A DNA stretch of 55,995 nucleotides, taken from the NCBI GenBank assembly GCA_018818885.1, contig JAHIRB010000035.1, positions 1 to 55,995 of the forward strand, in the 5' to 3' direction. Below the pieces are notes generated by a model. That model did no database searches, had not been told where the DNA came from, and saw nothing but the letters and a program-made list of their open reading frames with translations. The DNA comes from Patescibacteria group bacterium. Its GTDB lineage: Bacteria > Patescibacteriota > Patescibacteriia > Buchananbacterales > SURF-54. The translations under genes and the position numbers were made by a program. Within the stretch, counting starts at the first letter, position 1. The number at the start of each line of letters is the position of its first letter. Shown here piece after piece: positions 17,470 to 31,509 of the stretch.

Positions 17470-18276
17470 CGGGCTTTTAATTTTTTTAAGCCGAGGATTG
17501 GTTACCTGTGTATATATTTGAGTGGTTCTGATATTTTGATGGCCAAGCAATTCCTGTACGTAGCGCACGTCAACGCCGTTTTCCAACAGGTGAGTGGCAA
17601 AACTATGGCGCAAACTGTGAAAGGTCGCGTTTTTTTTGATGTTTGCTTTTTTTAACGAATTAGCAAACACTTTTTGTGCGGTTCTTTCTGTAAGTTTGCC
17701 CCCACGCTCACTTGAAAAGATATAGTCATTTTTATCTTTTCCAGCAATAAGATTTTGAAGGTCAATTTTTAATTTTTCAGGCATAATGGTAATTCTGTCC
17801 TTTTTTCCCTTAGCTTGCCTGATGTGAATTGTTAGCTCCAAAAGGTCAAGATCTTGTATCTTAAGATTGATAATTTCGCTTACCCTTAAGCCTGATCCAT
17901 AAGCTAAAGATAAAAGCAGTTTATGTTTGTTATTAGTTGTAACTTCAATAATTTTTTTAATTTCATTTCTTGATAAAACAACAGGCAAGAATTTATTTCT
18001 CTTAGCTATTCTTATCTGAATTGGGGTGAAGGATTTGGCGACGTCACGATAATAAAATTTAATCGCATTCAAATAAAGATTCCGCGTCTGGACCGAGATA
18101 GCCTTTTCTTCAGCATAAAGCAGGAAGTTTTTGATATTTTCCTCATCTAATTTTTCTAAGCCACTTTGCTTAAAGGTAAAATATTCTTTTAAGCCATAAA
18201 CATAGCTTTTTATGGTTTTTTGGCTAAAATTGCGTATTTTTAATTCACGCTTTACTTTCTCTAGTTCTTTTTGCAT
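17464..18276 (-). CDS. IntI-like tyrosine recombinase lacking the IntI-specific insertion
   Basis: N-terminal SAM-like domain (RNFSQKTIKSY); catalytic R (GLRVSE), K (KGKKDR), HSLRH, LGH, Y (TTQIY); C-terminal SPL; 3' end overlaps miaA by 6 nt. Confidence 0.93.
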   Translation of the reverse strand: MQKELEKVKRELKIRNFSQKTIKSYVYGLKEYFTFKQSGLEKLDEENIKNFLLYAEEKAISVQTRNLYLNAIKFYYRDVAKSFTPIQIRIAKRNKFLPVVLSRNEIKKIIEVTTNNKHKLLLSLAYGSGLRVSEIINLKIQDLDLLELTIHIRQAKGKKDRITIMPEKLKIDLQNLIAGKDKNDYIFSSERGGKLTERTAQKVFANSLKKANIKKNATFHSLRHSFATHLLENGVDVRYVQELLGHQNIRTTQIYTQVTNPRLKKIKSPL

Positions 18277-18299
18277 ATTTGTTATTTTTCAAGTAAAAT
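18271..18299 (+). promoter_or_regulatory. candidate Pc cassette promoter
   Basis: TTGCAT-17-TAAAAT overlapping the integrase start codon and pointing into the array. Confidence 0.55.
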
Positions 18300-18321
18300 T
18301 ATGATAGTTAATAGTATCAAT

Positions 18322-18350
18322 ACCTTATCATAAGTTCGCATAACATACAA
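18322..18350 (-). promoter_or_regulatory. candidate Pint integrase promoter
   Basis: minus strand TTGTAT-17-TAAGGT with TGn extension. Confidence 0.4.
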
Positions 18351-18373
18351 TATTACGGTTATTATACGAAAAC

Positions 18374-18402
18374 ACTTCGTATAATAACGAGTTATATGAA
18401 AT
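18374..18402 (+). other. attI-like primary recombination site
   Basis: ACTTCGTATAA-TAACGAG-TTATATGAAAT (11-7-11, arms 9/11 symmetric); GTTATATGA matches TCATATAAC at the end of cassette 1; crossover inferred at G18391|T. Confidence 0.8.
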
Positions 18403-18438
18403 AATTTATCAAAATTTTAGTTTTTAATATTTTGCATC

Positions 18439-19587
18439 ATGAAAATCAGAACAATAACAACTGGCGTGTCGCTTCAATCACCTGACATTGAAGATCAAAT
18501 TAGGCAAACTGCTGAATTCAATCAGAAAGCCAAAGAAGTATTTGAAAAAGCAGGTTATGAAGTACAAACAACCAGAATAGCCACTAATTGCTGGGAAGAA
18601 TATCTTGGTAGTCTTTCAGACGCAGAAATTGTAAGTGCGATTCAAAAAATAGAACAAATTTGCCAAAGCCTCGACGTGAGTTTTTTCAATATGGGCTACG
18701 CAAAAACGCCTGATAAAATAAAACTCATCCCTGAATTTAATAAAGTTACATCTCAAATTTCATGCTCCGCCAAAATCGGCGACAAGGACAGTGGAATAGA
18801 TTTTGAAAATACCAAAATAGCAGCTCAAGTTATCAAACGAATTGCAGAGGAAACCGAAAACGGTTACGGCAATTTTAGATTCTGCGCCTCCGCAAATTGT
18901 AAGCCAGGCATTCCGTTCTTTCCAACCGGCTTTCACGAGGGAGAAACCGCTTTCGGTATTGGCTTGGAGTGCGGAGACTTAGCCGTGAAGGCATTTTCAA
19001 AATCAAGCAATCTCATAGAAGCAGAGCAAAACCTAAAAGCAATATTTGAAGAAGAAACTAAGAAAGTCGCCGATTTGGCTCAACAGATTTCAAAAGACTT
19101 TGGCATTGGCTATAACGGTATTGATGCTTCACTAAATCCAGGACTTGAAGAGCATGAAAGTATTGCTTTTGCGTTTGAAAAACTCGGCTTTGGCAAATTT
19201 GGAAATCAAGGAACACTTACAATTTCTGCTTTGGTCACTCGTGTACTCAAAGGTTTGTCAGTTAAGATATGTGGCTATTCTGGTCTTATGCTCCCAGTAT
19301 GCGAAGACCTTGGACTTGCAACAAGAGCAAATGAAGCTACTTACGGCATTACTAACCTGCTTTTATATTCAGCAGTTTGTGGTGTTGGTTTAGACACAGT
19401 TCCAATTCCAGGCGACACGCCAGCAGAAAAGATTGAAGCGACACTTCTCGATATGGCGACTTTAGCAATTAAGTTAGATAAACCATTATCAGCTCGTTTA
19501 TTCCCAGTTCCAGGCAAAAAAGCAGGAGAAATGACAGATTTCAAGTCACCATATCTCGTAGACTGCAAAATATTAAAAATTGAATAA
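18439..19587 (+). CDS. cassette 1: DUF711-family protein
   Basis: MKIRTIT start, PGIPFFP, G.SGLMLPV.ED, SAVCGVGLDTVP.PG. Confidence 0.8.
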   Translation: MKIRTITTGVSLQSPDIEDQIRQTAEFNQKAKEVFEKAGYEVQTTRIATNCWEEYLGSLSDAEIVSAIQKIEQICQSLDVSFFNMGYAKTPDKIKLIPEFNKVTSQISCSAKIGDKDSGIDFENTKIAAQVIKRIAEETENGYGNFRFCASANCKPGIPFFPTGFHEGETAFGIGLECGDLAVKAFSKSSNLIEAEQNLKAIFEEETKKVADLAQQISKDFGIGYNGIDASLNPGLEEHESIAFAFEKLGFGKFGNQGTLTISALVTRVLKGLSVKICGYSGLMLPVCEDLGLATRANEATYGITNLLLYSAVCGVGLDTVPIPGDTPAEKIEATLLDMATLAIKLDKPLSARLFPVPGKKAGEMTDFKSPYLVDCKILKIE

Positions 19588-19608
19588 AAAATTTTGATAA
19601 ATTACATC

Positions 19609-20526
19609 ATATAACACGGCATAGCCGGTTCGCTCGCTAAATAAAATCATTTTTTTACCACTCATATATGAAAGACGTTATACAATTCATAAAACCGAGA
19701 ATCGTGAAGGTCACTTGCCCAGGTCTCGATTCAAAAGGAACAGGGTTTCTAATATCAGAGGATGGTCACATAGCGACAAATTTCCACGTTATTGGGCAAG
19801 TTGACCAAAACGGACGCGTCAATTATGCAAAACAAATTATTGTCTCAAATTCTATTATTGAAGATGTAGAAGCCAATATTGTTCACAATGTTAAGGATAC
19901 CGCGTCCGTTTTGCACGATTACTCTATAATTAAAATCGACAAAAATGGCCTAGATTATTTTGAGTTAGGTGAAGGAGCAGATGTAGAAGAGGGAGATGAA
20001 GTTTACTTTGGTGGATTCCCAATAACTCAAAATAATCTCACCTCTCATAAAGGGCATGTATCTTCATTACGTGAAGCACCAACGCGTTTTGGTACTGATC
20101 TTCAAAAAGTTATTGATATTGACGGTACCGTTGTTGGCGGTAATTCAGGTGGCCCTTTATTATTCAAAAAGGACGGCAAACACTTAGTCGTTGGAATCAT
20201 TAGTCAACAAGTAGCATACTTATCAGAGGCCTTTCAACATCTAGAGCAATTTCTAAAAGTACAGATGACAAATCCAAATTCAGGAGGTGTTTTTATTGGT
20301 GGGGTTAATCCAAATGCCGCCCTTTTTGAAACTATCAAAACGCTTAAAACTAACTTATCTACCGGTATCGGAACGGCCATTTTTGTCGATTATATGAAGA
20401 CGGAATTTGAGGAAATAAAAAAATGATTTTATTTTTAACGCTCGCTCACCCAAATTTGGCAGTGGTGGGTCGCGTTTGCTCCCAATTTTACCACTGCCAA
20501 ACTTCGGCTATGCCGAAACGTTGTGC
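19609..20526 (+). other. attC-like site 1 (918 bp, carries a gene)
   Basis: ATATAAC-A-CGGCATAGCCG ... CGGCTATGCCG-AAAC-GTTGTGC. Confidence 0.85.
19668..20426 (+). CDS. trypsin-like serine protease inside attC1
   Basis: GTGF, TNFHV (His), DYS (Asp), GGNSGGP (Ser). Confidence 0.9.
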   Translation: MKDVIQFIKPRIVKVTCPGLDSKGTGFLISEDGHIATNFHVIGQVDQNGRVNYAKQIIVSNSIIEDVEANIVHNVKDTASVLHDYSIIKIDKNGLDYFELGEGADVEEGDEVYFGGFPITQNNLTSHKGHVSSLREAPTRFGTDLQKVIDIDGTVVGGNSGGPLLFKKDGKHLVVGIISQQVAYLSEAFQHLEQFLKVQMTNPNSGGVFIGGVNPNAALFETIKTLKTNLSTGIGTAIFVDYMKTEFEEIKK

Positions 20527-20558
20527 GAAATTCGCCAGCAATTTAACTAATAAAACAG

Positions 20559-21068
20559 ATGTCGGAAATTTTTGAAATTAAAGAAAGCGGCAGTTTGGGC
20601 CGAGGATTATTCGCCACAAAGCTAATAAAAAAAGGCGAGAAAATTTTAGAATTCACGGGTCCAATTATCTCTATCAAGGAGGCACTGCAAAAACCACCAG
20701 AAAAATTATCATGCCCTTTGCAAATCGGGCCGACCGAATATATAGACATACAAGAACCTGGCGTTTTAGCTAATCATTCTTGCTCGCCAAATGCTGGCGT
20801 AAAAAATGATCATTACCTTGTGGCTATCCAAGACATCTTACCTGGCAATGAAATTTTTTATGATTATTCAACGACAATGGATGAAGATAATTGGACCCTA
20901 GAATGTAAATGCGGAAGCCCAAACTGCCGCCACATCATAGGAGATTTCCGACATCTTCCGATCGAAGTTCAAAAAAAATATTTAGAATTAAATATAGTCC
21001 AGTCCTTTATTGCGAAAAAATTGCTGGCGAACATCGCACAACACGGCATATCCGGCTCAGAAAATTGA
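20559..21068 (+). CDS. cassette 2: SET-domain protein with post-SET motif
   Basis: GRGLFA, ANHSCSPN, EIFYDY, CKCGSPNCR. Confidence 0.92.
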   Translation: MSEIFEIKESGSLGRGLFATKLIKKGEKILEFTGPIISIKEALQKPPEKLSCPLQIGPTEYIDIQEPGVLANHSCSPNAGVKNDHYLVAIQDILPGNEIFYDYSTTMDEDNWTLECKCGSPNCRHIIGDFRHLPIEVQKKYLELNIVQSFIAKKLLANIAQHGISGSEN

Positions 21069-21164
21069 CACAATTAAATTTAAAAGGGGTGTCAATTTTC
21101 TTCGACCCAAATTTTTGTTCCGCTACGCTACACAAAACCTTCGGATAATGCCGATACGTTATAC
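21036..21164 (+). other. attC-like site 2
   Basis: GCACAAC-A-CGGCATATCCG ... CGGATAATGCCG-ATAC-GTTATAC. Confidence 0.85.
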
Positions 21165-21229
21165 GACATTGCCCTTCGCCCGCCTAGAATGTAAACTTTT
21201 ATATATTTAGCAAATCTTTTCAAATTATT

Positions 21230-22081
21230 ATGATTAAAACCAAAGTCCTAAAGAAGATAAGCCAACAACAACTGGATAAAAAACTAAAGCTCAATATAGA
21301 GAATAAATATGTTGAGGGAGAACAATGGTTCAAAAATCCAGAATTATGGTATGAATTAACAGCTTTTTCAAATCCTTACATAACTGTTTACTCTGAACTT
21401 GTTCTGTTAATTCAAAATCTGAATAAAATTTCTGGATTTTTATCTGACAAAGCTTTAGTTTTTTATGGTCTTGGCACAGGAGATACAGAAATTATTTTAG
21501 TCAATTCTATACTTCAAAAAGAAAAAGTTGTTGATGTTGTTGGCTTAGAAATACAAGCACAATTTATCGATGGATTTATTCAATCCCTTCAAAATATCGC
21601 CCTTGAAAATGATGAATATGAAATAAACTTTTTGGGTATTCATGGATTATTTCAAGATACAAAAAAAGAATATTTGAAAATTAACAATAAAAAACAAGCT
21701 CACATAATTTTAGGAAATACTATAGGTAATTTTAAAGAAGAAGAAATTTTTCAAATCTTCAATAACTTGATGAACAAGGGCGATATTTTACTCGCAGGAT
21801 TTCAAACAGATGAAAACATGAATAAAGTTTTCAAGCAATATTCAGAGAATAAAATGTTTAACAATTTCATTAGAAAAACAATCCCAAATTGCGATGAACT
21901 AAAATGGAAGATCAATCAAGAAGAATCGCAAATTGAAGCATGGAGTGGTGACGTGCTTGTTTTTCATTCAAAAAAGAAAAATCCTGCGAGTATGATAAAT
22001 TGTGTCAAGGACTTTGGTTTTAAAAAGTTGTATAGTACAAACGATACTAATTCTTGTATTCAGATATTTGAAAAGATTTGA
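21230..22081 (+). CDS. cassette 3: SAM-dependent methyltransferase, EgtD-like
   Basis: YGLGTGD motif I; LGNTIGNF; GD.LL.GF. Confidence 0.7.
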   Translation: MIKTKVLKKISQQQLDKKLKLNIENKYVEGEQWFKNPELWYELTAFSNPYITVYSELVLLIQNLNKISGFLSDKALVFYGLGTGDTEIILVNSILQKEKVVDVVGLEIQAQFIDGFIQSLQNIALENDEYEINFLGIHGLFQDTKKEYLKINNKKQAHIILGNTIGNFKEEEIFQIFNNLMNKGDILLAGFQTDENMNKVFKQYSENKMFNNFIRKTIPNCDELKWKINQEESQIEAWSGDVLVFHSKKKNPASMINCVKDFGFKKLYSTNDTNSCIQIFEKI

Positions 22082-22144
22082 ACGGCGGGCTACGGGCAAC
22101 GCTTCGGGGACGCTGCGCTTTCGTCGCTATCGCTCCTCACCCTC

Positions 22145-22240
22145 GTATAACAAGGATTATGAGGAAAATGGCTCAGCTCGCCATTTTCCCAAATTTGCTC
22201 CACTGCGTTCCGCAAACTTCTCATAATCCTGACGTTATCG
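22145..22240 (+). other. attC-like site 3 (shortest, 96 bp)
   Basis: GTATAAC-A-AGGATTATGAG ... CTCATAATCCT-GAC-GTTATCG. Confidence 0.88.
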
Positions 22241-22259
22241 GAAATAATTTTAGGCTCTT

Positions 22260-22694
22260 ATGAACGAAGAACAATCAAAAAAAATTATGAGGCTTGCTAT
22301 TGAGGAGGCAAAGAAATCCTCAGAACCACTGAAGTGTGGTGTTGTCATTGTTAAGAATGAAGAGGTGATTGCGAAAACATACAACTCTCAGCGAGAATCA
22401 AAAAATTCTTCAGCCCATGCTGAAATAAAAGCTTTAGGAGTGGCTGGACAGATAGTGGACAATAAAAATCTTGATGGTTGCGACATTTTTTGTACTTGTG
22501 AACCGTGTATTATGTGTGTTTCCGCAATCACTTTTGCAAAAATTAGGCGTCTTTATTATGGGATTTCTTTGTCTGACGTTTCACCGAAAGATAAACGAAT
22601 AGATATCAGTATTGATGAATTTTTCCAAAAATCGCCTCATAAATTCGAAGTGATAAAGAATTTTTTAGAAGAAGAATGCAAGGTACTAATTTGA
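22260..22694 (+). CDS. cassette 4: zinc-dependent nucleoside deaminase
   Basis: HAE and PCIMC zinc motifs. Confidence 0.92.
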   Translation: MNEEQSKKIMRLAIEEAKKSSEPLKCGVVIVKNEEVIAKTYNSQRESKNSSAHAEIKALGVAGQIVDNKNLDGCDIFCTCEPCIMCVSAITFAKIRRLYYGISLSDVSPKDKRIDISIDEFFQKSPHKFEVIKNFLEEECKVLI

Positions 22695-22711
22695 TCGCCT
22701 AAAATTACATC

Positions 22712-22851
22712 CGATAACAGCGTGTATGAGGTTCAAAAAAAGTGCGTTAATAATACCTAAAGGCTGCACTTTTTCTTTCACCCAAATTTCGCCTCCTATA
22801 TAATTAAAATAAGGAAGTCGGCGAAACTTCTCATACACGCAAACGTTAGGC
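22712..22851 (+). other. attC-like site 4
   Basis: CGATAAC-A-GCGTGTATGAG ... CTCATACACGC-AAAC-GTTAGGC. Confidence 0.9.
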
Positions 22852-22879
22852 GAAATAAGATTTAAACAAAAATTATTTT

Positions 22880-23149
22880 ATGGCAACAAAACCTTGGACA
22901 AGAAATCAAAAAATTGCTGTATGGGGGGTTATAGCCGTAATCATTATGGGTGTACTCGGATGGTTTATTAAAATAGATTTAGAAATATCTTATATACAAA
23001 GTCAAATTGAACAAATTCAGATAGATAAAGCGAACATAAAATCATTAGTTGTTGATGAATTTTTAAAAACCTGCCCACCAGGAACAACTACTTCGACTAT
23101 TGAATTTGTCGATGAAGGAATTAAATTTGGATGTATAATCCCAGAATAA
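22880..23149 (+). CDS. cassette 5: single-TM hypothetical protein
   Basis: 89-aa ORF filling the cassette. Confidence 0.75.
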   Translation: MATKPWTRNQKIAVWGVIAVIIMGVLGWFIKIDLEISYIQSQIEQIQIDKANIKSLVVDEFLKTCPPGTTTSTIEFVDEGIKFGCIIPE

Positions 23150-23190
23150 TTTTTGTTTAAATCTTACTCTCCGCTCCGCCCTATCGGGTC

Positions 23191-23733
23191 GCCTAACACG
23201 GGCTAGCCGGTTCGCAGTATGCACTTTGAAACAAACATTTTTAGGAAGCTGCCCAAATCAACCAAAGGAGGCCTACTATGATTTTGGGATTAACAAAAGA
23301 AGATTTAGAGAAACCAACAATTACAGAGGTAGAAGAAGTTCGCGTACATGACGGAAGGGGGGGTGCTGCCACAGTACGAGTCGGCGATCAAGTTGAAGTT
23401 TTCAAACCAGAAGAAAATAAATTGACTCTGGCCTATCTCGGCCCCGGGCCATACACTATTGAATGGACGGCGCAATGGAGATGTGGCCGAGATTTCCTTC
23501 AACTGACAACGCCGACAAAAGGTAAGGGCAAAGGCGTTAACGCTTCCAAATTTCAAATCGTCTCATAGTTTCATTATGGACGCACAAAAACGGGAAGGCA
23601 TACTTTCGCCTTCCCGCTTCCTAAAAATGTTTGTTTATTTATCACGCTCACCCAAATCCCACACCTATTTTAGTAAATTTCAAATAATAGCACAAAATAT
23701 GTGAGGGACTTCGGCTAGCCCGAAACGTTATGT
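23191..23733 (+). other. attC-like site 5 (543 bp, carries a gene)
   Basis: GCCTAAC-A-CGGGCTAGCCG ... CGGCTAGCCCG-AAAC-GTTATGT. Confidence 0.88.
23278..23568 (+). CDS. hypothetical protein inside attC5
   Basis: AAGGAGG SD; enclosed by a perfect 21-bp IR (23229-23249/23616-23636). Confidence 0.8.
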   Translation: MILGLTKEDLEKPTITEVEEVRVHDGRGGAATVRVGDQVEVFKPEENKLTLAYLGPGPYTIEWTAQWRCGRDFLQLTTPTKGKGKGVNASKFQIVS

Positions 23734-23770
23734 GAAATTTATTTTTGTTTTTATCTAATAAACACGTAAT

Positions 23771-24202
23771 ATGAATAAATCTTTTTCTCTTTTTCTCGAA
23801 CAACTAAAAAAACTTAATCTACCAAAAGGCAAATTCGCTATTTTCGGAAGTGGCCCCCTGGGTATAAGAAATATCAGAGACACCCATGATCTTGATCTTA
23901 TTGTAGATGAATCGCTTTTTGACGAGTATAAAAATATGCCGAGCTGGGAGTTTAAAAGTTTTGACAGAGATGATCGTCATGTTGAGATGATTGAAAATAG
24001 CGGAATTGAGTTCTACAAAACATGGGGGCCGGGCGATTGGGATACTCGCCAGTTAATTGATAATGCGGAAATTATTGATAATTTGCCTTTTGTAAAATTA
24101 GAGGAAGTAAAAAAGTGGAAGAAAATATCAGGAAGAGAAAAAGATTTAAAAGATGTCCAACTAATAAACGAGTATTTGGAAAAGTCACAAAAACAAAAAT
24201 AA
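23771..24202 (+). CDS. cassette 6: putative minimal nucleotidyltransferase-fold protein
   Basis: FGSGPL...DTHDLDL (GS plus DxD). Confidence 0.6.
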   Translation: MNKSFSLFLEQLKKLNLPKGKFAIFGSGPLGIRNIRDTHDLDLIVDESLFDEYKNMPSWEFKSFDRDDRHVEMIENSGIEFYKTWGPGDWDTRQLIDNAEIIDNLPFVKLEEVKKWKKISGREKDLKDVQLINEYLEKSQKQK

Positions 24203-24207
24203 ACATC

Positions 24208-24337
24208 ACATAACAAAGAGTATGCGGTTCAGGAATTTTTCATTTATAATTTAATAAGGAGTAAAAAATTCCTTCACCCAAATTTTTTGTTCCGCTATCG
24301 CTACACAAAAAACTTCGCATACTCTTAAACGTTATGT
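24208..24337 (+). other. attC-like site 6
   Basis: ACATAAC-A-AAGAGTATGCG ... CGCATACTCTT-AAAC-GTTATGT. Confidence 0.9.
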
Positions 24338-24435
24338 GAAATATTGACTAGATTATTCTGGCATAAAATGTTTTTGCCGATAAAAAAGTCAGTGCGATTT
24401 TAAAACTGATAATCAAATAATTCCGTCAATACATC
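24332..24435 (+). other. cassette 7 body: no ORF
   Basis: ~100 bp between TTATGTGA and TCACATAA, bounded by TATTGAC/GTCAATA. Confidence 0.8.
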
Positions 24436-24585
24436 ACATAACACTGTGTATCTGGTTCCGTAAAAGAGAAAAATTAAATAATTCTCTATTTTTAAAAAGC
24501 CCTTTTTCAATTTTTTTTGACAAAGAAAAAACCGCCTCAACCTTTGTGGTATATTGGCGGTAAGCAGTCGGTCTGCTCAGTCCTT

Positions 24586-24762
24586 TTACTTTGTGCGAAA
24601 GAGCGGGCAAATCAGGTCGTGAAATTCTTTCAGTGATTCGTTCAACATGGTATGCCAAACGAATATTCCAACCTCGCGCTCTTTCAAAAGAGCAACCAAC
24701 TTTTCCGCCCTTTCCTGCAACGCGTCATGCGTAAGTTCTGTTTTTTGCTCGTTTTCAGCCAT
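24586..24762 (-). CDS. 58-aa hypothetical protein inside attC7 (below the ORF-track cutoff)
   Basis: MAENEQKTELTHDALQERAEKLVALLKEREVGIFVWHTMLNESLKEFHDLICPLFRTK; GAAAGGAG SD, own promoter, terminator ACCGCC/GGCGGT. Confidence 0.75.
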   Translation of the reverse strand: MAENEQKTELTHDALQERAEKLVALLKEREVGIFVWHTMLNESLKEFHDLICPLFRTK

Positions 24763-24820
24763 TTCTACTTCTCCTTTCAGGTTAGTTGGTAATATTTAAT
24801 ACCAAATTTGGTATCGTTGC

Positions 24821-24849
24821 ATTGTAGCAGAAAACTGTCCCTCTGTCAA
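24821..24849 (-). promoter_or_regulatory. promoter of antisense module in attC7
   Basis: TTGACA-17-TACAAT with TGn extension. Confidence 0.85.
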
Positions 24850-25033
24850 GTCCAGCGACCAAAAAAAATTGAAAAAGGGCTTTAATAAGGTAAATTATTT
24901 AATTTTTCTTTTTTACTCCACCCAAATTTTTGCCTTTCCTTTCTTTTAGAATATAATAAGGAAGAAAGGCAAAAACTTCAGATACACAGAAACGTTAGGC
25001 GAAATTAATTTATTAACCTTTAATCAAAATCAT

Positions 25034-25249
25034 ATGGAAAAATTTGAAAGAGCTCCACAAGAGCCACAATCAACGGAAGAGGCAGTATCACGTTTTCTTG
25101 ACGGAGATAATAATGCCGCAGTGTCTTTTTTGCGAAATCACCGCGATGAAATCGGTGAATTCTGTTTACAAATCCGCGACACATACCAAAAAAATGACAC
25201 TGCGACTCCTTTTTTGGAATTGGCAAAGTTAATTGATTCGTTGCTATAA
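25034..25249 (+). CDS. cassette 8: hypothetical protein
   Basis: 71-aa ORF filling the cassette. Confidence 0.7.
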   Translation: MEKFERAPQEPQSTEEAVSRFLDGDNNAAVSFLRNHRDEIGEFCLQIRDTYQKNDTATPFLELAKLIDSLL

Positions 25250-25270
25250 ACGGTTAATAAATTAACTATC

Positions 25271-25411
25271 GCCTAACAGCGTGTATGAGGTTCAAGAAAA
25301 AGTGCGTTAATAATTTTCAGCGGTTGCACTTTTTCTTTCACCCAAATTTCGCCTCCTCTATAATGAAAATAAGGAAGTCGGCGAAACTTCTCATACACGC
25401 AAACGTTATGT
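25271..25411 (+). other. attC-like site 8 (near-copy of site 4)
   Basis: GCCTAAC-A-GCGTGTATGAG ... CTCATACACGC-AAAC-GTTATGT. Confidence 0.9.
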
Positions 25412-25523
25412 GAAATAGCCAGAAATTTTTTTATTATTTTTTAGATTTTTTTTGGCAATTTATTTCGGTCGAACATAGCTTGTGATATAATTTAATCAGC
25501 TTAATAATTTAACCAATAAAATT

Positions 25524-25802
25524 ATGAAAAACCCAGAAATGAGTCCTGAGCAACCAAAAAAGTGGGAAACTCTAACCACTGAGCAAATAATTGAGAGGAT
25601 AAAATCAAACTCTGAAGCACAAGAAAAAGCTTTTGGTAGTGTTCTTACTGAAGAACAGTTTAAAGAAAGATTTCCTCATAATTCAGCAAAAGTCGAAGAT
25701 ATTCAAAATATGATGCTAGCGTTAGGGTTAGAGCTTCCCACTCAAGAAGATGTAGAGCAAATGATGCAACAAGGCGAAGAAAATGATCAGGAAGAAAAAT
25801 AA
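25524..25802 (+). CDS. cassette 9: acidic hypothetical protein
   Basis: 92-aa ORF; TGnTATAAT upstream. Confidence 0.75.
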   Translation: MKNPEMSPEQPKKWETLTTEQIIERIKSNSEAQEKAFGSVLTEEQFKERFPHNSAKVEDIQNMMLALGLELPTQEDVEQMMQQGEENDQEEK

Positions 25803-25846
25803 ATTGCCAAAAAATACATTAAGGAAAAGAAATTTCTGTCTACATC

Positions 25847-26350
25847 ACATAACATGTTGTATCTGGCTACGCTAAATAATAATTTATTTTCTCTACTTAT
25901 ATGGGTATCAAAGTTGAATTTAACCCCGACCTCGCTTTAAGGAATATTTCCGAATTTAAAAACGGTAATCGTAAAATTGAAGAATGTATTCCTGAAAGCC
26001 TTGAGGAAGGCAAAACATATCCGTTTTTAAAATGCGATCAACGTAATTACTGGCTTTATGGTGCAATACCTTTAATCGAAACCAAAGGCAATGAGATTTT
26101 ATCACGTCCTAAGGCTAAAATTATTCTGCTGGAAGCCACGCACTTTGCTGTTGATAACGTAACGTATACTAAAGGCTTTTACAAAGTAATTGAGGTCTTT
26201 AAGGATGACGATATACATTTTGAATGTTTTGATCCGGTGGGAACGAGAAAATAAATTATTATTTAGCTCCGCCCAAATTTCTTCTTCTTTTTTATTATTA
26301 ATTTAATAATGAAGCGAAGAAGAAACTTCAGATACAACAAAACGTTATGT
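25847..26350 (+). other. attC-like site 9 (504 bp, carries a gene)
   Basis: ACATAAC-A-TGTTGTATCTG ... CAGATACAACA-AAAC-GTTATGT. Confidence 0.88.
25901..26254 (+). CDS. hypothetical protein inside attC9
   Basis: 117-aa ORF enclosed by a perfect 23-bp IR (25871-25893/26245-26267). Confidence 0.8.
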   Translation: MGIKVEFNPDLALRNISEFKNGNRKIEECIPESLEEGKTYPFLKCDQRNYWLYGAIPLIETKGNEILSRPKAKIILLEATHFAVDNVTYTKGFYKVIEVFKDDDIHFECFDPVGTRK

Positions 26351-26383
26351 GAAAAACAATAAATTCATAATAACATATAAATA

Positions 26384-27034
26384 ATGGGGTTCAATAAAAA
26401 GGAAGTTAATAAACTATTAGCATCTTGCCACAGAAGATGCTGCATTTGCCATAAATTCTGCGGGGTCAAAATGGAAACTGATCATATCGAACAAAAATTC
26501 ATCTCGCAGAATGATTCTATTGAAAATGCAATTCCAGTCTGTTTTGAATGTCATGCCGAAATCCATCTTTATAATGACAAACATCCACGTGGCAGAAAAT
26601 TTTCATCCGAAGAGTTGCATGAGCATAAGCGTCAATGGCTGGAAATATGCGAAAAAAATCCTGAGATGTTTATTCAACCACTCCAAAGAAGTGATGTAGG
26701 TCCTCTTCAGTCGTTGGCAGATGAACTAAAATTCAATGTAGCTATCAAACAGTATCAAGATTCTAATGTTGGATATTTCTGTCCTTTTGAGGTTAAGCAG
26801 TTTGACAGATCATTAAATGATGGCTATATCTCTATATTAAATGATAGTTTAGCAGATTCCTTAACTAACACTTATATTCAAATTAAATTGGCAAATACAG
26901 CACTCAATGCTATTACTTCGGCGCCTTGTGAAAGAGATCGAGGATTAGCCAAAAATAGACTCCAAGATGTATTAAGAATAATGGGTACAAAGATTGATGA
27001 AACTTATAAATTGCTTAAAAATCAATTAGAGTGA
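26384..27034 (+). CDS. cassette 10: HNH endonuclease domain protein
   Basis: CCIC...DHI...N.I.VCFECH..IH. Confidence 0.85.
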   Translation: MGFNKKEVNKLLASCHRRCCICHKFCGVKMETDHIEQKFISQNDSIENAIPVCFECHAEIHLYNDKHPRGRKFSSEELHEHKRQWLEICEKNPEMFIQPLQRSDVGPLQSLADELKFNVAIKQYQDSNVGYFCPFEVKQFDRSLNDGYISILNDSLADSLTNTYIQIKLANTALNAITSAPCERDRGLAKNRLQDVLRIMGTKIDETYKLLKNQLE

Positions 27035-27100
27035 ATTTATTGTTCTTCGCCTAACACGGGTTAGCCGGTTCACGCTGGCTAAATAAAATTATTCAATATT

Positions 27101-27676
27101 ATGAAAACTATTATAAAATTAATAAATCTAGCGGCCCTACTTGGGTCAGTTGCATGGCTATCCAAAGATACTAATTGGGAACCATTACTATTATTTCTTG
27201 CCTTATTAGCCGCATTCTTAGGGCAGGAAATCTTACCAACAATTAAAAAAGTGAACAAAGAAGACAAAAAGCTAGGAGAATTATTTCTTAAAGAATTCCC
27301 CTCAAACGGTAAAAGTTGCTTATTTTTAAAAGAACATGAGCTACACAATCCATTCCGCCAATCACAACTTGATGAAATTGAAAAATTCTTAAGTGAATGG
27401 GATAACACCGAACATGAGTTCTTAAATAAAAAATTAGAAAGAATAAAAAAAGAACTACTCTCTAAAATTAATAAATTTTTATCTTCGTTGTTTACTTTGG
27501 TAAGAGCCCATGATAGTGATGTTAATATATTAACAACCAAGCTAAGCGGGGCGTACAATAAAGAGGTAGAAGAAGAAAATGATTTAAAAATAGCTGGACT
27601 AAACAAAATGGCAACTGATATATATAAAAAACATCAAATACTAACAAAAAAGATAAAAAGAATCTTAAATTCTTAG
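27101..27676 (+). CDS. N-terminally membrane-anchored hypothetical protein inside attC10
   Basis: 191 aa, two N-terminal hydrophobic segments; 20-bp IR 27081-27100/27679-27698. Confidence 0.8.
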   Translation: MKTIIKLINLAALLGSVAWLSKDTNWEPLLLFLALLAAFLGQEILPTIKKVNKEDKKLGELFLKEFPSNGKSCLFLKEHELHNPFRQSQLDEIEKFLSEWDNTEHEFLNKKLERIKKELLSKINKFLSSLFTLVRAHDSDVNILTTKLSGAYNKEVEEENDLKIAGLNKMATDIYKKHQILTKKIKRILNS

Positions 27677-27729
27677 CTAATATTGAATAATTTTATTTTT
27701 AACGCTTGCTAATAAAATAATTTAAAAAT

Positions 27730-28023
27730 ATGGAAAATCAAATATTTAAAAAATTTACCTTATGGGATTCAGTAGTTTTACTGGTTTTAATACTTATTGC
27801 TATACCATCAATACTTGGAGTATTAGAAGCTGTAACTGGTCAAGACTATTATCAAATGACGGTTTATCTTTTTATATCGGCTATAATCTTGTTTGGAATT
27901 TTCAAATATTCAAAAAAGTTGGTGAGCAATATAAAAAATGCAGAAACTAAAAAAAGAGCAACTATAATATCAGCAGTATTGATAATCATTACCCTGCTAT
28001 TCTTTTTCAGACTATTTTTTTAA
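27730..28023 (+). CDS. 3-TM hypothetical protein inside attC10
   Basis: 97 aa; 18-bp IR 27711-27728/28017-28034. Confidence 0.75.
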   Translation: MENQIFKKFTLWDSVVLLVLILIAIPSILGVLEAVTGQDYYQMTVYLFISAIILFGIFKYSKKLVSNIKNAETKKRATIISAVLIIITLLFFFRLFF

Positions 28024-28217
28024 ATTATTTTATTTAACGCGCTCACCCAAATCCCGCCATGGGCGGGACTTCGGCTAACCCGAAACGTTAGGTAACATTT
28101 TATTCAAAATCTTTTAAATTTAATAATAGAGCCCTTTTGAAATTTTTTAAGAAAAAAGAAAGGGCTCCGCTCACTATTTTTAGTGGGGAGCCCTGATGAG
28201 CGGAGGACGCACGACAG

Positions 28218-28655
28218 TCACTTGAGGCGCGAGACTGCCTCGACGCCACTCATAGTTCTGCCAGTGGCGCAATCCATCACGAAGCTGCCGACTGACGACC
28301 CCGCCTTGATCATGGCGAGCCACTGGTCGTAGGTCGCCGTCGCGTACGGTCCGGCCGAGGCCTTGTTGTCGGCGAGCCAGCGTGCGAGCGCTTCGGGCGT
28401 TTCCATCACAGGCGAGATTGGTGTCCCTTCCGTGACGGACTCATACATCTGGTAGTGCGTGCGTTCCGACTCCGGCCACTGCGGCATGACGTCGCATCCG
28501 TAGTTCGGCGGGTCGTTGTTGAGCCAGCCGTCACGTAGTCCCTCCACAATCTCTTCCTCGTCGTACGGGAAGTGCTCGTGCATGGGGATGTGGTGGCCGT
28601 TCTCGTCCTTGGGGTGTTCCCAGTTTGCGGGAACTCTGCGAGCTTCTGTACTCAT
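28218..28655 (-). CDS. cassette 11: antisense, GC-rich hypothetical protein
   Basis: 145 aa; GAGGAGG SD; 42/60 and 38/60 G+C in two lines counted; GGGCTCC/GGAGCCC terminator. Confidence 0.85.
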   Translation of the reverse strand: MSTEARRVPANWEHPKDENGHHIPMHEHFPYDEEEIVEGLRDGWLNNDPPNYGCDVMPQWPESERTHYQMYESVTEGTPISPVMETPEALARWLADNKASAGPYATATYDQWLAMIKAGSSVGSFVMDCATGRTMSGVEAVSRLK

Positions 28656-28717
28656 GGCTTTGTCCTCCTCTTTGGTTGTTTTATGTGCAATTTAACGCCA
28701 AAATTAGCGTTCATATT

Positions 28718-28746
28718 AGTATAGCATAAAACTGATAACCTGTCAA
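28718..28746 (-). promoter_or_regulatory. promoter of antisense module in cassette 11
   Basis: TTGACA-17-TATACT with TGn extension. Confidence 0.85.
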
Positions 28747-28807
28747 GCTCGCGACCAAAAAAATTTCAAAAAGGCTCTAATAATAAGGTATTTTTGAATA
28801 AAACATC

Positions 28808-29253
28808 ACCTAACACCTGCTATCTGACTCCGCCTTTCGATAAATAATTTTTAACCACTTAATATGGAAACTTTAGAAAACTTTATAGAAAAACTTGACG
28901 AAAAAACTGAGATTGAAATAGCAAACTTTTTAAATGCAAGCCAAGATTCAAAAAGAGATTCAATAAAAGCTATTTTAGATTCTAGAATTATAAAAAATTT
29001 ACAGCAACTAACTAAAACAATCGAAGAAAATAACATAAAAACAGAAAACTATAATACTACACTAACTAAACTTACAAAATGGATTTTTATATTTACAGTT
29101 GTGATGACTATTGCAACAATAATCAGTTTATTCAAAGGTTAAAAATTATTTATCGGGCGTCGCGCAAATTGCTCATTCGCTTACGTGATGACCTCCAGTT
29201 AATTATATCACGACGCGAATTTCGCAACTTCAGATAGCAGGGTAACGTTATGT
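28808..29253 (+). other. attC-like site 11 (446 bp, carries a gene)
   Basis: ACCTAAC-A-CCTGCTATCTG ... CAGATAGCAGG-GTAAC-GTTATGT. Confidence 0.82.
28864..29142 (+). CDS. coiled-coil protein with C-terminal TM, inside attC11
   Basis: 92 aa; perfect 19-bp IR 28838-28856/29137-29155. Confidence 0.78.
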   Translation: METLENFIEKLDEKTEIEIANFLNASQDSKRDSIKAILDSRIIKNLQQLTKTIEENNIKTENYNTTLTKLTKWIFIFTVVMTIATIISLFKG

Positions 29254-29307
29254 GATGTTTGGCTTTTACTTAGTACAATTAATAATTTATAATTTAATAA
29301 AACCATT

Positions 29308-29469
29308 ATGAACAAAACAACAAAAATCACATTACTTATTATTGCTGGTTTATTAGTGTTTAACGGATTAATCAATATTTCCGACAATGGAGGAGTTTTA
29401 GCCTATGACATTGCTTCCATTTTATCTGGAATTGGATTTATTGTTGTTGCTCTATCTAAGAAAGCATAA
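29308..29469 (+). CDS. cassette 12: 53-aa 2-TM protein (below the ORF-track cutoff)
   Basis: MNKTTKITLLIIAGLLVFNGLINISDNGGVLAYDIASILSGIGFIVVALSKKA; fills the cassette. Confidence 0.75.
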   Translation: MNKTTKITLLIIAGLLVFNGLINISDNGGVLAYDIASILSGIGFIVVALSKKA

Positions 29470-29481
29470 AAGCCGAACATC

Positions 29482-29678
29482 ACATAACAGCGTGTATCTG
29501 GTTACGGAAAATTGGCGTTAATTAAATCCTTAAGGAATGCCAATTTTCCTCCGCCCAAATTTTCATCCCTTTACAAGATGAGGATTTGGGTGGGGTTCTG
29601 TTAAAAAGTGTCGTCTGATAATCAAAATTTAACCTATTTAATCGGGATGAAAACTTCAGATACACGCGAACGTTATAT
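29482..29678 (+). other. attC-like site 12
   Basis: ACATAAC-A-GCGTGTATCTG ... CAGATACACGC-GAAC-GTTATAT. Confidence 0.88.
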
Positions 29679-29698
29679 GAAATAATAATTTTATTTTT

Positions 29699-30169
29699 AT
29701 GTCAGATAAAATAAACAAATGCCTAGATGATTTAAGATATGCTTATAAATGTAACGTGCCTTTGGGATAAGTACTCGAATCATATAGTTTTTACGCTGAT
29801 CCTAAATATGTCACAATAGAAACTTACAAAAATTTTTGCGTGTTTGTTTATAAAACGGATATTGATAACGAGGGAATTTTAAAAAAAGCTAAAAAATATC
29901 CCGATTACGAAACTTATATAAGTGACAAAAGTAGTTTTGCAAAATTTTTTATTGAACGCGGTCCAAGATTAGATACGCCCAAAAAGAAACGAATTAAAAA
30001 ATATACTACCTATTCAGCGCATGGACATTTCCAAACCAATAATCCTATTTCTGCTTTTTTAAACTTCATAGCGATGTTGCCCGCTTATATATTAATGATG
30101 ACTATCGCCGGAATCGCAAAGATTTTTGTAAGTTTCTTTGACCTGTTCAAATCTAACAAAGAAAAATAA
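29699..30169 (+). pseudogene. cassette 13 gene with in-frame TAA at codon 24
   Basis: ATG 29699 is in frame with ORF 29840; single TAA at 29768-29770, frame otherwise open. Confidence 0.65.
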
Positions 30170-30251
30170 AATTATTACATCGTATAACACGGCGTATACG
30201 ACATTTGTTTATCCACTAAAACCCGGGGGAGTCGTTCGCGAACGGCTTCTC

Positions 30252-30300
30252 TTGACAAAAATAATCAGGCTGATATAATTGTAATACAATGTATTACAAT
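30252..30300 (+). promoter_or_regulatory. TA promoter and operator
   Basis: TTGACA-16-TGnTATAAT followed by palindrome ATTGTAATACA-A-TGTATTACAAT (30278-30300). Confidence 0.85.
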
Positions 30301-30312
30301 TAATCTATTTCT

Positions 30313-30528
30313 ATGAGACAAGTAATTAACATCTCCTTACCTAAACAAACAGCCCATGAAGTCAAATCTGCCGTTAAAAGAGGCAATTATCTCAGCGTCA
30401 GTGAGTTTTTTCGTGATTTATTAAGAGATTGGCAGGCAGGTAATCTTCTTAATGAATTAAACCAAAGTAGAAAAGAAATTAAAGCGGGCAAGGGCAAAAC
30501 CTTAAAATCCTTAAAGGATTTAAGGTAA
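30313..30528 (+). CDS. ribbon-helix-helix antitoxin (ParD/CopG-like)
   Basis: VINISLP...G.Y.SVSEFFRDLLR; upstream of RelE-like toxin. Confidence 0.85.
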   Translation: MRQVINISLPKQTAHEVKSAVKRGNYLSVSEFFRDLLRDWQAGNLLNELNQSRKEIKAGKGKTLKSLKDLR

Positions 30529-30534
30529 TTTTTT

Positions 30535-30792
30535 ATGGAAATTATTTATTCCTCAAAGTTTGCCCGTGAATATAAGAAACTGCCAAAAAAAGTAAAGGCA
30601 ACGGCGGAAGAGCACGAAACAATATTCAGACAGAACCCCCGAGATCCAAGATTAAACACGCACAAACTTCATGGCAGACTTAAAGAATTCTGGTCTTTTT
30701 CAATCGGGAACAAATACCGAATTATTTTTGAATTTGGCAATGACACTACAATTTGCTTGCATTTAGTCGGCAATCATGATATTTACCAATAA
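30535..30792 (+). CDS. RelE-superfamily mRNA interferase toxin (YafQ/YoeB-like)
   Basis: YSSKFAREYKKL, HKLHGRLKEFWSFSI, YRIIF, VGNHDIY. Confidence 0.9.
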   Translation: MEIIYSSKFAREYKKLPKKVKATAEEHETIFRQNPRDPRLNTHKLHGRLKEFWSFSIGNKYRIIFEFGNDTTICLHLVGNHDIYQ

Positions 30793-30908
30793 ACAAACGT
30801 CGCATACGCTGGAACGTTAGGCGAACTTTATATGATCCTGATGTTATGCAATTACATAATTTAACACGAAAAAAGAATTTTTAGAATGTAGATTATAATC
30901 TAGAAATT

Positions 30909-31373
30909 ATGAGCAAAAATAATATGAAAAGTATTATCTTCCCCAAGGTTAAAGAGTGGTTTTTAAGATACATACTCGCAGAAATAGTAGCCATCATAGG
31001 TGCTATGGTGGGAGGTCTATTAGCATATTACTTTTTTAACAACCTTGTTGCTACTGCTCTCGGTGGAACTTGGGGCGAAAATATTGGTTATTATGGACAA
31101 ATAATATATAGTGATTTAAAAAAGAGCAAACAAAAAGACGGAAAAATTACATTTATTATTGTTCTTAAACTTATAAGAAACGCCATTATAGAATTTGGGC
31201 CAGGGGAGTATCTTGATAGCTTTCTTATTCGTCCTATTACCATGTATTTTTTTATAAGCGTAGTTGGTAGTCTTCCTGTTGGGTTATTCCTTGGCAAAAT
31301 AAGTGCTGATGTCATTTTTTATATACCTACAATTACTGCATACGAGTTTCAAAAAAAATACATTAAAGATTAA
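30909..31373 (+). CDS. membrane protein, hypothetical, outside the last attC
   Basis: 154-aa hydrophobic ORF; no downstream R'' site found. Confidence 0.75.
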   Translation: MSKNNMKSIIFPKVKEWFLRYILAEIVAIIGAMVGGLLAYYFFNNLVATALGGTWGENIGYYGQIIYSDLKKSKQKDGKITFIIVLKLIRNAIIEFGPGEYLDSFLIRPITMYFFISVVGSLPVGLFLGKISADVIFYIPTITAYEFQKKYIKD

Positions 31374-31454
31374 TATTTTTTTGTTATTTAGGAACTCCGA
31401 ATCGGAATCTCGCGTAAGCGTATATGCTAGATCCTAAATTTAATTCAGAATTAC

Positions 31455-31487
31455 AAAAAAAAGGCGAGGCGTGGAAGCCTCGTCTTT
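31455..31487. terminator. terminator between convergent gene blocks
   Basis: A8-GGCGAGGC-GTGGAA-GCCTCGTC-TTT. Confidence 0.75.
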
Positions 31488-31509
31488 AAGGTTTTATTAA
31501 TTTGTATTA

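Follow-up and report, generated by a model that had tools for sequence, protein, structure and literature searches.

Can an array of branched inverted repeats in the Candidate Phyla Radiation (CPR)/Patescibacteria be read as the attC sites of an integron, and what would then determine which of the two strands is recombined? The question is raised by contig JAHIRB010000035.1 of a Patescibacteria group bacterium (assembly GCA_018818885.1), whose full length of 55,995 nucleotides (nt) was analysed and is referred to here as the window. For positions 19609-29678, an original prediction proposed a conserved three-way-junction attC fold with a bottom-strand bias, the junction possibly replacing the extrahelical bases of classical attC sites as the strand-selection signal. 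We identified 13 attC-like sites on the + strand at 19604-30827; the thirteenth, as well as an attI-like core (18374-18402), falls outside the range first described. Our analyses make it rather likely that these are attC-type sites of an integron-like cassette array, widespread in CPR/Patescibacteria and served by a short IntI/XerA-like tyrosine recombinase without the IntI insert; their AAC/GTT boxes, cassette boundaries and L''/L' pairing are all consistent with the attC-type identity originally proposed.

The sites share one layout, consisting of ACATC-NNNN-AAC, a single A, an 11-mer (L''), an interior, a second 11-mer (L') that is the exact reverse complement of the first, 3-5 nt (mostly AAAC) and GTT-NNNN-GAAAT. 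An inverse core (R'', ending in AAC) and a core (R', starting with GTT) bound an imperfect palindrome in each of the 13 window sites, as they do in all 71 non-redundant sites collected from about 25 genomes, where the finders demanded them. Because these finders required AAC, a 1-nt left spacer (A) and GTT, the universality of these features does not follow from the 71-site set, which is thus no independent test of the left spacer. In the window itself, the left spacer is A in 13 of 13 sites and the right spacer reads AAAC, ATAC, GAC, GAAC or GTAAC, so the predicted asymmetry of 1 versus 3-5 nt holds throughout, and a right spacer of 3-5 nt is also found among the collected sites. The L stem is a perfect 11-bp helix in 11 of the 13 sites, the exceptions being site 2, with an extra A in L', and site 13, with mismatches. 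A bulge in L' is absent from 66 of the 71 collected sites and, where present, places the extra base in the + strand L', i.e. on the bottom-strand arm that carries AAC; for most sites, it was therefore right to say that a canonical extrahelical base is lacking. Between the two 11-mers, a central (T)CACCC-AAATTT-like motif is followed by arm B and then by AAACTT or GGACTT abutting the second 11-mer in 12 of the 13 sites, which fit the predicted consensus, site 13 being the one without the motif. GTTC directly follows the first 11-mer in seven of the 13 sites and is replaced by GCTC, GCTA, GTTA, GAAA or ACTC in others.

Under DNA parameters, the five short window sites are all predicted to fold into three-way junctions, with z-scores between -4.9 and -7.9 for the bottom strand and between -3.8 and -6.6 for the top strand. 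The cleanest short junction is that of site 6 (24203-24342; AAC..GTT 24212-24333), at -29.0 kcal/mol on the bottom and -24.0 kcal/mol on the top strand, and short junctions are likewise seen in sites 4 (22707-22856; AAC..GTT 22716-22847), 8 (25266-25416; AAC..GTT 25275-25407) and 2 (21031-21169; AAC..GTT 21040-21160), the last with its one extra A in L' (CGGATAATGCCG). Site 3 (22140-22245; AAC..GTT 22149-22236) has an 88-nt core in which a fully paired GAAA/TTTC takes the place of GTTC/TCAC. When the window sites were pooled with those of relatives, the minimum free-energy structure of the bottom strand had two helices inside the L stem in 34 of 42 non-redundant short sites, most commonly without any linker at the L stem and with the two arms separated by 2 nt (CC on the top strand, GG on the bottom strand), in agreement with the prediction that GG is left unpaired at the junction.

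This fold is supported by covariation. In an alignment of 14 short sites from nine loci, standard pairs occupy 99% of the cells, compared to 31-47% when the partners are slid by one to three columns, and both sides have changed in 14 of the 23 pairs; the covariation score of 0.552 (0.118 in shuffles) was reached by none of 500 shuffles. Within the L stem, both-side changes affect nine of the 11 pairs, as expected of L''/L' pairing. The junction-proximal helix occurs as AAATTT/AAACTT, ATATTT/AAACAT, AAATCC/GGACTT and AAATTC/GAACTT, and while neighbouring pairs covary, 46 of 53 sites keep its third position as A.C on the top and hence as G.T on the bottom strand (G-C in four, A-T in one), which bears out the predicted AAGTTT/AAATTT wobble. 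For the GTTC/TCAC position, predicted to form tandem sheared G.A pairs, the alignment gives G-C, T-A and two mismatches that become G.A/A.G on the bottom strand, in line with the prediction as far as the bases are concerned; the same position is fully Watson-Crick in the variants GAAA/TTTC and GTGA/TCAC. Chance or low-complexity repeats as a source of these patterns were ruled out by the shuffles, the slid-partner controls and a control search with the reversed pattern.

If the sites belong to cassettes, the boundaries of the mobile unit should indicate where, and on which strand, they are cut. Of 78 variable positions, 74 are complementary between the start of a cassette and its own R'', compared to 56 with the start of its neighbour, which is the classical signature of a G|TT crossover; the first cassette starts with TTATATGA, to which the R'' of site 1 is exactly complementary. 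Comparisons between genomes are in line with this boundary. A cassette common to the loci L027 and L028 begins at GTT behind unrelated upstream sites, and the alignment stops at the GTT of the downstream site, while a gene 86% identical between L028 and L049 is accompanied by differing R arms, each fitting its own R'' (TTATCAGC/GCTGATAA versus TTAAATCC/GGATTTAA). At the start of the array, the core ACTTCGTATAA-TAACGAG-TTATATGAAAT (18374-18402, + strand; 11-7-11), recognised by reading the sequence, has an intact GTT box alone; its left side reads TAC instead of AAC, and its crossover would be G|TT at 18391/18392. This attI layout is repeated beside the orthologous integrase in L034. The attI core overlaps a minimal hairpin, with 18358-18368 paired to 18378-18388.

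These boundaries bear directly on the strand, because a recombinase seated on the R box of a hairpin can cleave the 5' arm only (5'-AA|C), so that a boundary at R' implies exchange of the bottom strand. One may instead imagine the same integron-like system recombining the coding strand, with cassettes bounded at AA|C of R''. We give this top-strand alternative little probability: the attI left side has no intact AAC, and it is the downstream, not the upstream, site that travels with shared cassettes. Indeed, a cassette composed of the upstream site plus the gene, as this alternative would have it, is ruled out by the L027/L028 and L028/L049 comparisons together with attI.

Apparent shared cassettes returned by blastn in L034, L049, L051, L055, L059 and L065 proved to be an approximately 130-nt conserved element upstream of R'', not shared genes, and for that reason these matches were not used as evidence for boundaries. 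The element (GTGTTTTGGGCTTCGGGCATTCACCCC...CCCAAAACGGAAAAACAAAA...) is structured, sits behind the stop codon and ahead of R'' in some cassettes of at least six genomes, and occurs independently of the upstream gene (L049 3270-3470, L059 8107-8305, L051 7500-7704, L055 2180-2324, L065, L034 on the reverse strand, and contig C14 at about 2700-2810). In L027 (reverse strand, 1362-2030), a 668-nt insertion breaks a cassette gene relative to its L028 homologue.

Thermodynamics point to the same strand as the cassette boundaries. The bottom strand is the more stable one in 41 of the 42 short sites, by 2.95 kcal/mol on average, as originally predicted; the sole exception is site 12 (29477-29683; AAC..GTT 29486-29674), whose 189-nt core has a long arm B and is predicted to be more stable on the top strand. 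Control windows taken from the array's own open reading frames (ORFs) show a strand difference of +0.24 +/- 1.29 kcal/mol, which rules out a composition artefact as the source of the bias. In the same 42 sites, the bottom strand has 107 G.T pairs and the top strand 27 (2.5 versus 0.6 per site), and the top-strand GC skew of sites averages -0.136 and is negative in 50 of 56, which amounts to an excess of G on the bottom strand. Wobbles and purine-purine pairs on the bottom strand turn into mismatches on the top strand, so that only the bottom strand folds well; a recombining top strand would carry A.C and pyrimidine-pyrimidine mismatches where its complement has wobbles. Taken together, thermodynamics, cassette logic and the between-genome comparison agree on the bottom strand.

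The bias is not special to this fold. Among 263 classical attC sites, the bottom strand was reported to have an advantage of 2.12 kcal/mol, 1.24 versus 0.39 G:T pairs per site and a purine bias (Nivina et al. 2016, PMC5027507). The bias in free energy, G:T pairs and purines is thus already published for classical attC and not new in itself, and the implication that such a skew distinguishes the branched sites does not hold. Its occurrence in classical attC nevertheless supports a single-strand mechanism of the integron type for the sites described here.

The recombinase gene (17464-18276, - strand) is divergent from the array and encodes a 270-amino-acid (aa) IntI/XerA-like tyrosine recombinase without the IntI-specific insert; from it the array runs rightwards on the + strand, with the attI-like core followed by 13 repeat-bounded units up to 30827, and two further sites are located on a 3.6-kb contig of the source genome. 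Against the integron integrase model TIGR02249, only model positions 2-178 and 237-313 could be aligned (223 bits; cut-off 265), positions 178-237, i.e. the IntI-specific additional domain (I2 helix region), being a gap. The protein reaches 225 against NF040815 (XerA/integron integrase, NCBIfam), above the cut-off of 220, and among the PDB structures it matches IntI4 (2a3v) with 155 bits, the alignment being split into two parts by the omission of IntI4 residues 183-240, and XerA with 153 bits. The source genome has two other Xer-like genes beside the array integrase.

An enzyme that scores alike against XerA and IntI and passes the NF040815 cut-off raises a further alternative, namely that the sites work as duplex DNA in the manner of Xer/dif recombination. 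Each "attC" would then be two inverted dif-like cores, e.g. ACATCACATAA-CAGCGT-GTATCTGGTTC on the left (11-6-11) and ACTTCAGATAC-ACGCAAACG-TTATGTGAAAT on the right (11-9-11), with genes lying alternately between R arms and between L arms, after the fashion of the Acinetobacter pdif modules, and no folding of single strands. Several features fit this scheme. The R' arm TTATGTGAAAT is identical at 10 of 11 positions to the XerD arm of E. coli dif, attI is an ordinary 11-7-11 duplex core, both kinds of slots hold real genes, and some interiors are common to different R contexts, with homology ending at AAC and GTT. However, the central regions of the half-sites are unequal and variable (6 versus 8-10 bp): unlike the 11-7-11 attI, left halves are 11-6-11 and right halves 11-8 to 10-11, and the first four spacer bases of the right halves vary between sites, which would block the second strand exchange. 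Moreover, duplex sites would have no need for hairpin arms A and B that are kept through compensatory changes and idiosyncratic sequences, nor for the strong one-strand asymmetry in G.T pairs and free energy, and the shared cassettes are bounded at R' only, the gene being inherited together with its downstream site. We therefore regard duplex recombination as unlikely, although less so than the coding-strand alternative.

Known Xer/dif systems, such as archaeal XerA-dif and the pdif modules of Acinetobacter, share with the CPR array 11-bp arms ending in ...ATAA, the 11-7-11 duplex core found here in attI, an Xer-sized recombinase that passes the XerA/integron-integrase NCBIfam model, and inverted sites that flank genes. 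In contrast to them, the CPR sites are covarying hairpin pairs with branched interiors, a one-strand wobble bias and unequal half-site spacers, the mobile unit is bounded at one side only, and arrays of tens of unrelated small genes lie beside a dedicated third recombinase gene. A precedent for an Xer-type enzyme acting on folded DNA is the integration of CTX-phage, in which the attP single strand folds into a hairpin resembling a duplex core, XerCD exchange one strand pair on it, and replication resolves the product. An Xer-type enzyme without the IntI insert working on a folded single strand is also the mechanism we propose for the CPR array, whereas the phage system has one phage site that integrates at dif, no cassette array, no three-way junction and no cargo within the site.

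Classical attC/IntI systems, i.e. class 1 mobile integrons and the Vibrio cholerae repeats, have more in common with the CPR array: AAC...GTT boxes with a crossover inferred at G|TT, cassette starts complementing their own R'', L''/L' pairing, an unpaired spacer, a variable terminal structure and a divergent integrase beside attI. In both, the bottom strand is more stable and richer in G and in G.T pairs, the reported classical advantage being 2.12 kcal/mol (PMC5027507) and that of the CPR sites 2.95 kcal/mol. The differences concern the integrase, which lacks the I2 (IntI-specific) insert of classical IntI; the R arms, which are 11-12 nt long with at least four cassette-specific positions; the L stem, a perfect 11-bp helix usually without an extrahelical base, the extra unpaired bases being on the AAC arm of the bottom strand; the junction motif, which is phylum-wide and includes a duplicate of the R box at the base of the arm B stem (P3); and the variable arm, which holds whole genes in 15 of 71 sites.

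The sites and the integrase have a wide and linked distribution. A covariance model built on the R'-to-junction half of the site (R1) found matches within the class in 203 of 401 genomes, representing 174 of 301 genera, and in 53 of 301 genomes across the phylum (E <= 1e-5), so the junction motif is kept in homologous arrays, where its absence would have counted against the original prediction. A strict pattern search had matches in 28 of 101 relatives, compared to two matches for the reversed-pattern control. Orthologues of the integrase, all about 270-300 aa long and 44-74% identical, are present in 42 of the 101 relatives, and its closest relatives are named from many CPR/Patescibacteria lineages; a search of other assemblies for contigs encoding exactly this integrase returned the source contig only. 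In at least six other genomes an orthologue lies close to sites, the divergent arrangement having been read from sequence in one of them (G079, locus L034), and by a hand tally 32 of the 34 integrase-positive genomes identifiable in the class-wide R1 search carry sites. In another class of the phylum, a 28-kb region (G434:C1:257790-285784) contains at least 14 model matches and is a large array with the same site family.

What, then, is the role of the junction? Its motif bears a resemblance to the R box itself. According to a consensus built from 59 sites, arm B's 3' strand together with the first 7 nt of L' (ACTTC-NNN-TA) resembles R'' (ACATC-NNN-TAA), position by position A98 C97 T61 T97 C100 ... 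T97 A100 for P3 plus L' and A81 C92 A75 T92 C100 ... T81 A100 A100 for R'', and in the ATATTT/AAACAT subfamily this strand reads ACATC itself. The opposite strand is split at the junction and combines the last 7 nt of L'' (NTATCTG) with AAAT, the opening 4 nt of arm B on its 5' strand, as in TTATGTG-AAAT of R'. At the second position from the outer end, both duplexes have C.A on the top and G.T on the bottom strand. The same motif recurs in attI, whose left arm ACTTCGTATAA has it 7 bp from the crossover. Given these similarities, a second recombinase arm resembling the R box, of which AAATTT/AAACTT would form the outer 4 bp, explains the conserved motif better than an independent junction signal does. 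In our reading, the L stem stacked on arm B would rebuild a second recombinase-binding arm, and the junction would be there to let arm A leave the helix.

The preferred mechanism may accordingly be outlined as follows. The cassette unit runs from G|TT to the next G|TT and comprises TT, the gene and R''-A-L''-[arm A]-CC-[arm B]-L'-AAAC-G, and the recombining form would be the folded bottom strand (the - strand of the window). In this form, the R box would be a duplex of about 11 bp, followed by an asymmetric central region of 9 nt on the 5'-AA|C arm and 6 nt on the other arm, and by the 11-bp L stem ending in the three-way junction, where P3 would continue the L stem without a linker and, stacked on it, form the second copy of the R box. 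One recombinase monomer could bind each of the two arms, the R-bound one cleaving AA|C, after which a single strand would be exchanged, the partner being either attI (an 11-7-11 duplex that has both arms as well) or a second folded site, and replication would resolve the product. Folding in vivo, binding to both arms, the cleavage point and resolution are all proposed here on the strength of sequence comparisons. A wider version of this scheme can be offered as tentative: the arrays might represent a phylum-wide CPR integron lineage whose Xer-sized integrase never had the domain reading extrahelical bases, in which a pseudo-symmetric core made of the R box and its junction-built copy is recognised, the shared G.T pairs and a 3-nt bulge on the cleaved arm set the strand choice, and the free third arm gives rise to genes within sites and two-tier cassettes.

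It is also conceivable that the branched element is mainly an RNA structure in cassette transcripts or a selfish repeat, recombination itself requiring no more than the R and L boxes. Such an element would fit the near-identical interiors seen across unrelated contexts and genomes, the existence of junction-free simple hairpin sites and the TATAAT-like and AAGGAG-like strings that, by eye, are frequent in the arm A and arm B loops. Yet no Rfam family was matched within 17000-32000 at E <= 0.1, the better-folding strand is antisense to the genes, and the motif tracks the integrase across genomes; in addition, the base of P3 copies the R box and the attI left arm, which points to recombinase binding. 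Of the alternatives considered, this is the one to which we assign the least probability, although the element may play such a part as a secondary function.

Several observations weigh against an attC-type mechanism as outlined above. First, the extra unpaired bases of the bottom strand (GTTT versus T, and the bulge when present) are found on the arm with 5'-AAC-3', the reverse of the classical situation. In classical attC, extrahelical bases sit on the arm opposite 5'-AAC-3' of the bottom strand, and their placement drives IntI binding (PMC5027507); no such bases near L'' and opposite 5'-AAC-3' are seen here. Since the right spacer is longer than the left, the bottom-strand extra bases fall on the AAC arm and the polarity is reversed, which is the main argument for the top strand being recombined: there, the spacer's extra AAA and the G/A bulge of L' fall on the + strand 3' arm, opposite 5'-AAC-3', where classical integrases prefer bulges (PMC5027507), so that by the classical rule the top strand looks like the substrate. 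Against that argument stands an integrase without the domain reading extrahelical bases. Second, the sites are kin by descent, which means that 42 or 71 sites are not independent events, and part of their conservation may stem from inheritance or horizontal spread of site families. Third, unrelated genes and differing R arms are seen around interiors (AAC..GTT) with 91-95% identity, namely in sites 4 and 8 and in L027 (2708) and L034 (11098); a strict exchange at R' alone does not explain these shared interiors, which indicate that interiors also move, or are copied, independently of genes. Fourth, the similarity between the arms had been noticed before a register was chosen to compare them, the attI arm being the independent support. 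Finally, simple hairpin sites without the P3 mimic persist within the same arrays.

These hairpins, several of which, 49-73 nt long, occupy the same arrays as junction sites, also qualify the proposal that the junction replaces extrahelical bases. A bulge in L' is found in three of six simple hairpins and in two of 65 junction or long sites, small numbers that lend limited support to junction and bulge as alternatives, and to that extent the proposal survives. The junction is, however, not indispensable, given that the simple hairpins and the terminal site 13 do without it, and it is not the conserved asymmetry either, the feature present in all sites examined being the 1-versus-4-nt spacer. 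Site 13 (30177-30827; AAC..GTT 30186-30818), with its mismatched L stem and no junction motif, contains a ribbon-helix-helix (RHH) antitoxin gene (30313-30528) and a second small ORF (30535-30792), a putative toxin-antitoxin pair.

We found no account in the literature of these sites, of such integrons in CPR or of a three-way junction in attC. With the strand bias already known, the novelty lies in an attC with a phylum-wide branched architecture and an integrase without the IntI insert. Classical strand selection rests on extrahelical bases that are read by the IntI-specific domain; the arrays described here would be an abundant natural system that has neither of these features in the classical arrangement, yet retains cassette logic and bottom-strand bias, which is of interest for the origins of integrons. 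They also suggest an alternative, testable route to strand selection, in which a second R-like arm would be built across the junction, wobble positions would be shared and the cleaved arm would carry a bulge. Standard integron finders require an IntI domain and the classical attC model, and they probably miss these arrays, present in about half of the sampled genomes of the class.

The interior of the site ranges from 15 to 1416 nt among the 71 sites and exceeds 340 nt in 15 of them. In the window, and unmentioned in the original prediction, sites 1, 5, 7, 9, 10 and 11 have complete ORFs in arm A, each closed by its own inverted repeat, and the 11-bp L stems that span these genes are exact complements. 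Site 1 (19604-20531; AAC..GTT 19613-20522), with the L stem CGGCATAGCCG/CGGCTATGCCG and the centre CACCCAAATTT at 20447, encloses a gene for a trypsin-like peptidase (19668-20426; Pfam E-value 2.4e-21). A 96-aa ORF (23278-23568) closed by a 21-bp stem lies in arm A of site 5 (23186-23738; AAC..GTT 23195-23729), the junction helix of which is the covarying variant AAATCC/GGACTT. Site 7 (24431-25005; AAC..GTT 24440-24996) holds an antisense unit with its own flanking inverted repeat (about 24496-24880), site 9 (25842-26355; AAC..GTT 25851-26346) a 117-aa ORF (25901-26254), and site 10 (27044-28098; AAC..GTT 27053-28089) two ORFs (27101-27676 and 27730-28023) with an inverted repeat each, while site 11 (28803-29258; AAC..GTT 28812-29249) combines a 92-aa ORF with a degenerate centre (CGCGCAAATTG) and the right spacer GTAAC. 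Arm A is the variable arm and accommodates anything from a 20-nt hairpin up to whole genes. Its exit from the junction between the two halves of the second arm would leave it free and variable and account for the wide tolerance of inserts; if the wider scheme is true, genes could live inside sites as well as between them, giving two tiers of cassettes. With a free arm that takes kilobase inserts, folded recombination sites may be able to bear cargo, which is relevant to structure-specific recombination tools.

The arm A genes (19631-28043; e.g. 27064-27710 and 27705-28040) have A/T-rich inverted repeats of their own (TAAATAAAAT...ATTTTATTTTTAAC), with GCTNGC hexamers between them. In site 1, a GCTCGC hexamer on both sides of the unit is reminiscent of a target duplication, and in site 10 two units stand in series; these inverted-repeat units have the look of mobile units of a second tier. 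Genes between sites (18392-19612, 22848-23190 and others) likewise come with private inverted repeats beside the R arms, such as AATTTATCAAAATTTT/AAAATTTTGATAAATT around the DUF711 gene and AAGATTTAAACAAAAATTATT/AATAATTTTTGTTTAAATCTT around 22880-23149, and in single-stranded form every gene enclosed in this manner could be looped out. One inverted-repeat shell (AGCCCTTTT.AATTTTTT...) surrounds an antisense unit twice, in site 7 (24496-24880) and between sites 10 and 11 (28130-28790); the latter copy contains a 145-aa ORF on the - strand and forms a block of 46% G+C, compared to about 34% elsewhere.

As to exchange between sites, the interior of site 4 (22737-22857) is 91% identical to that of site 8, with R arms that differ on both sides. 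A site in L037 (10231-10371, + strand) is chimeric, with a left half (L'', arm A and TCACCC) like that of site 8 and a right half of the ATATTT/AAACAT family; its L' and L'' disagree at two positions, which suggests an exchange within the junction.

The proteins encoded in the cassettes are mostly small and without a Pfam match, those with a match being DUF711, the trypsin-like peptidase, a SET-domain protein, a methyltransferase, a deaminase, a weak HNH and the RHH antitoxin. The first cassette after attI (18439-19587) carries the 382-aa DUF711 gene, unusually large and conserved for an integron cassette; its ends follow the cassette rule nonetheless, TTATATGA matching TCATATAA of site 1. Across the window, the sign of the AT skew changes over the array, from positive before about 31 kb to negative after it (switch at about 17-31 kb), and the array may be located at a replication-related switch in strand bias, possibly the terminus.

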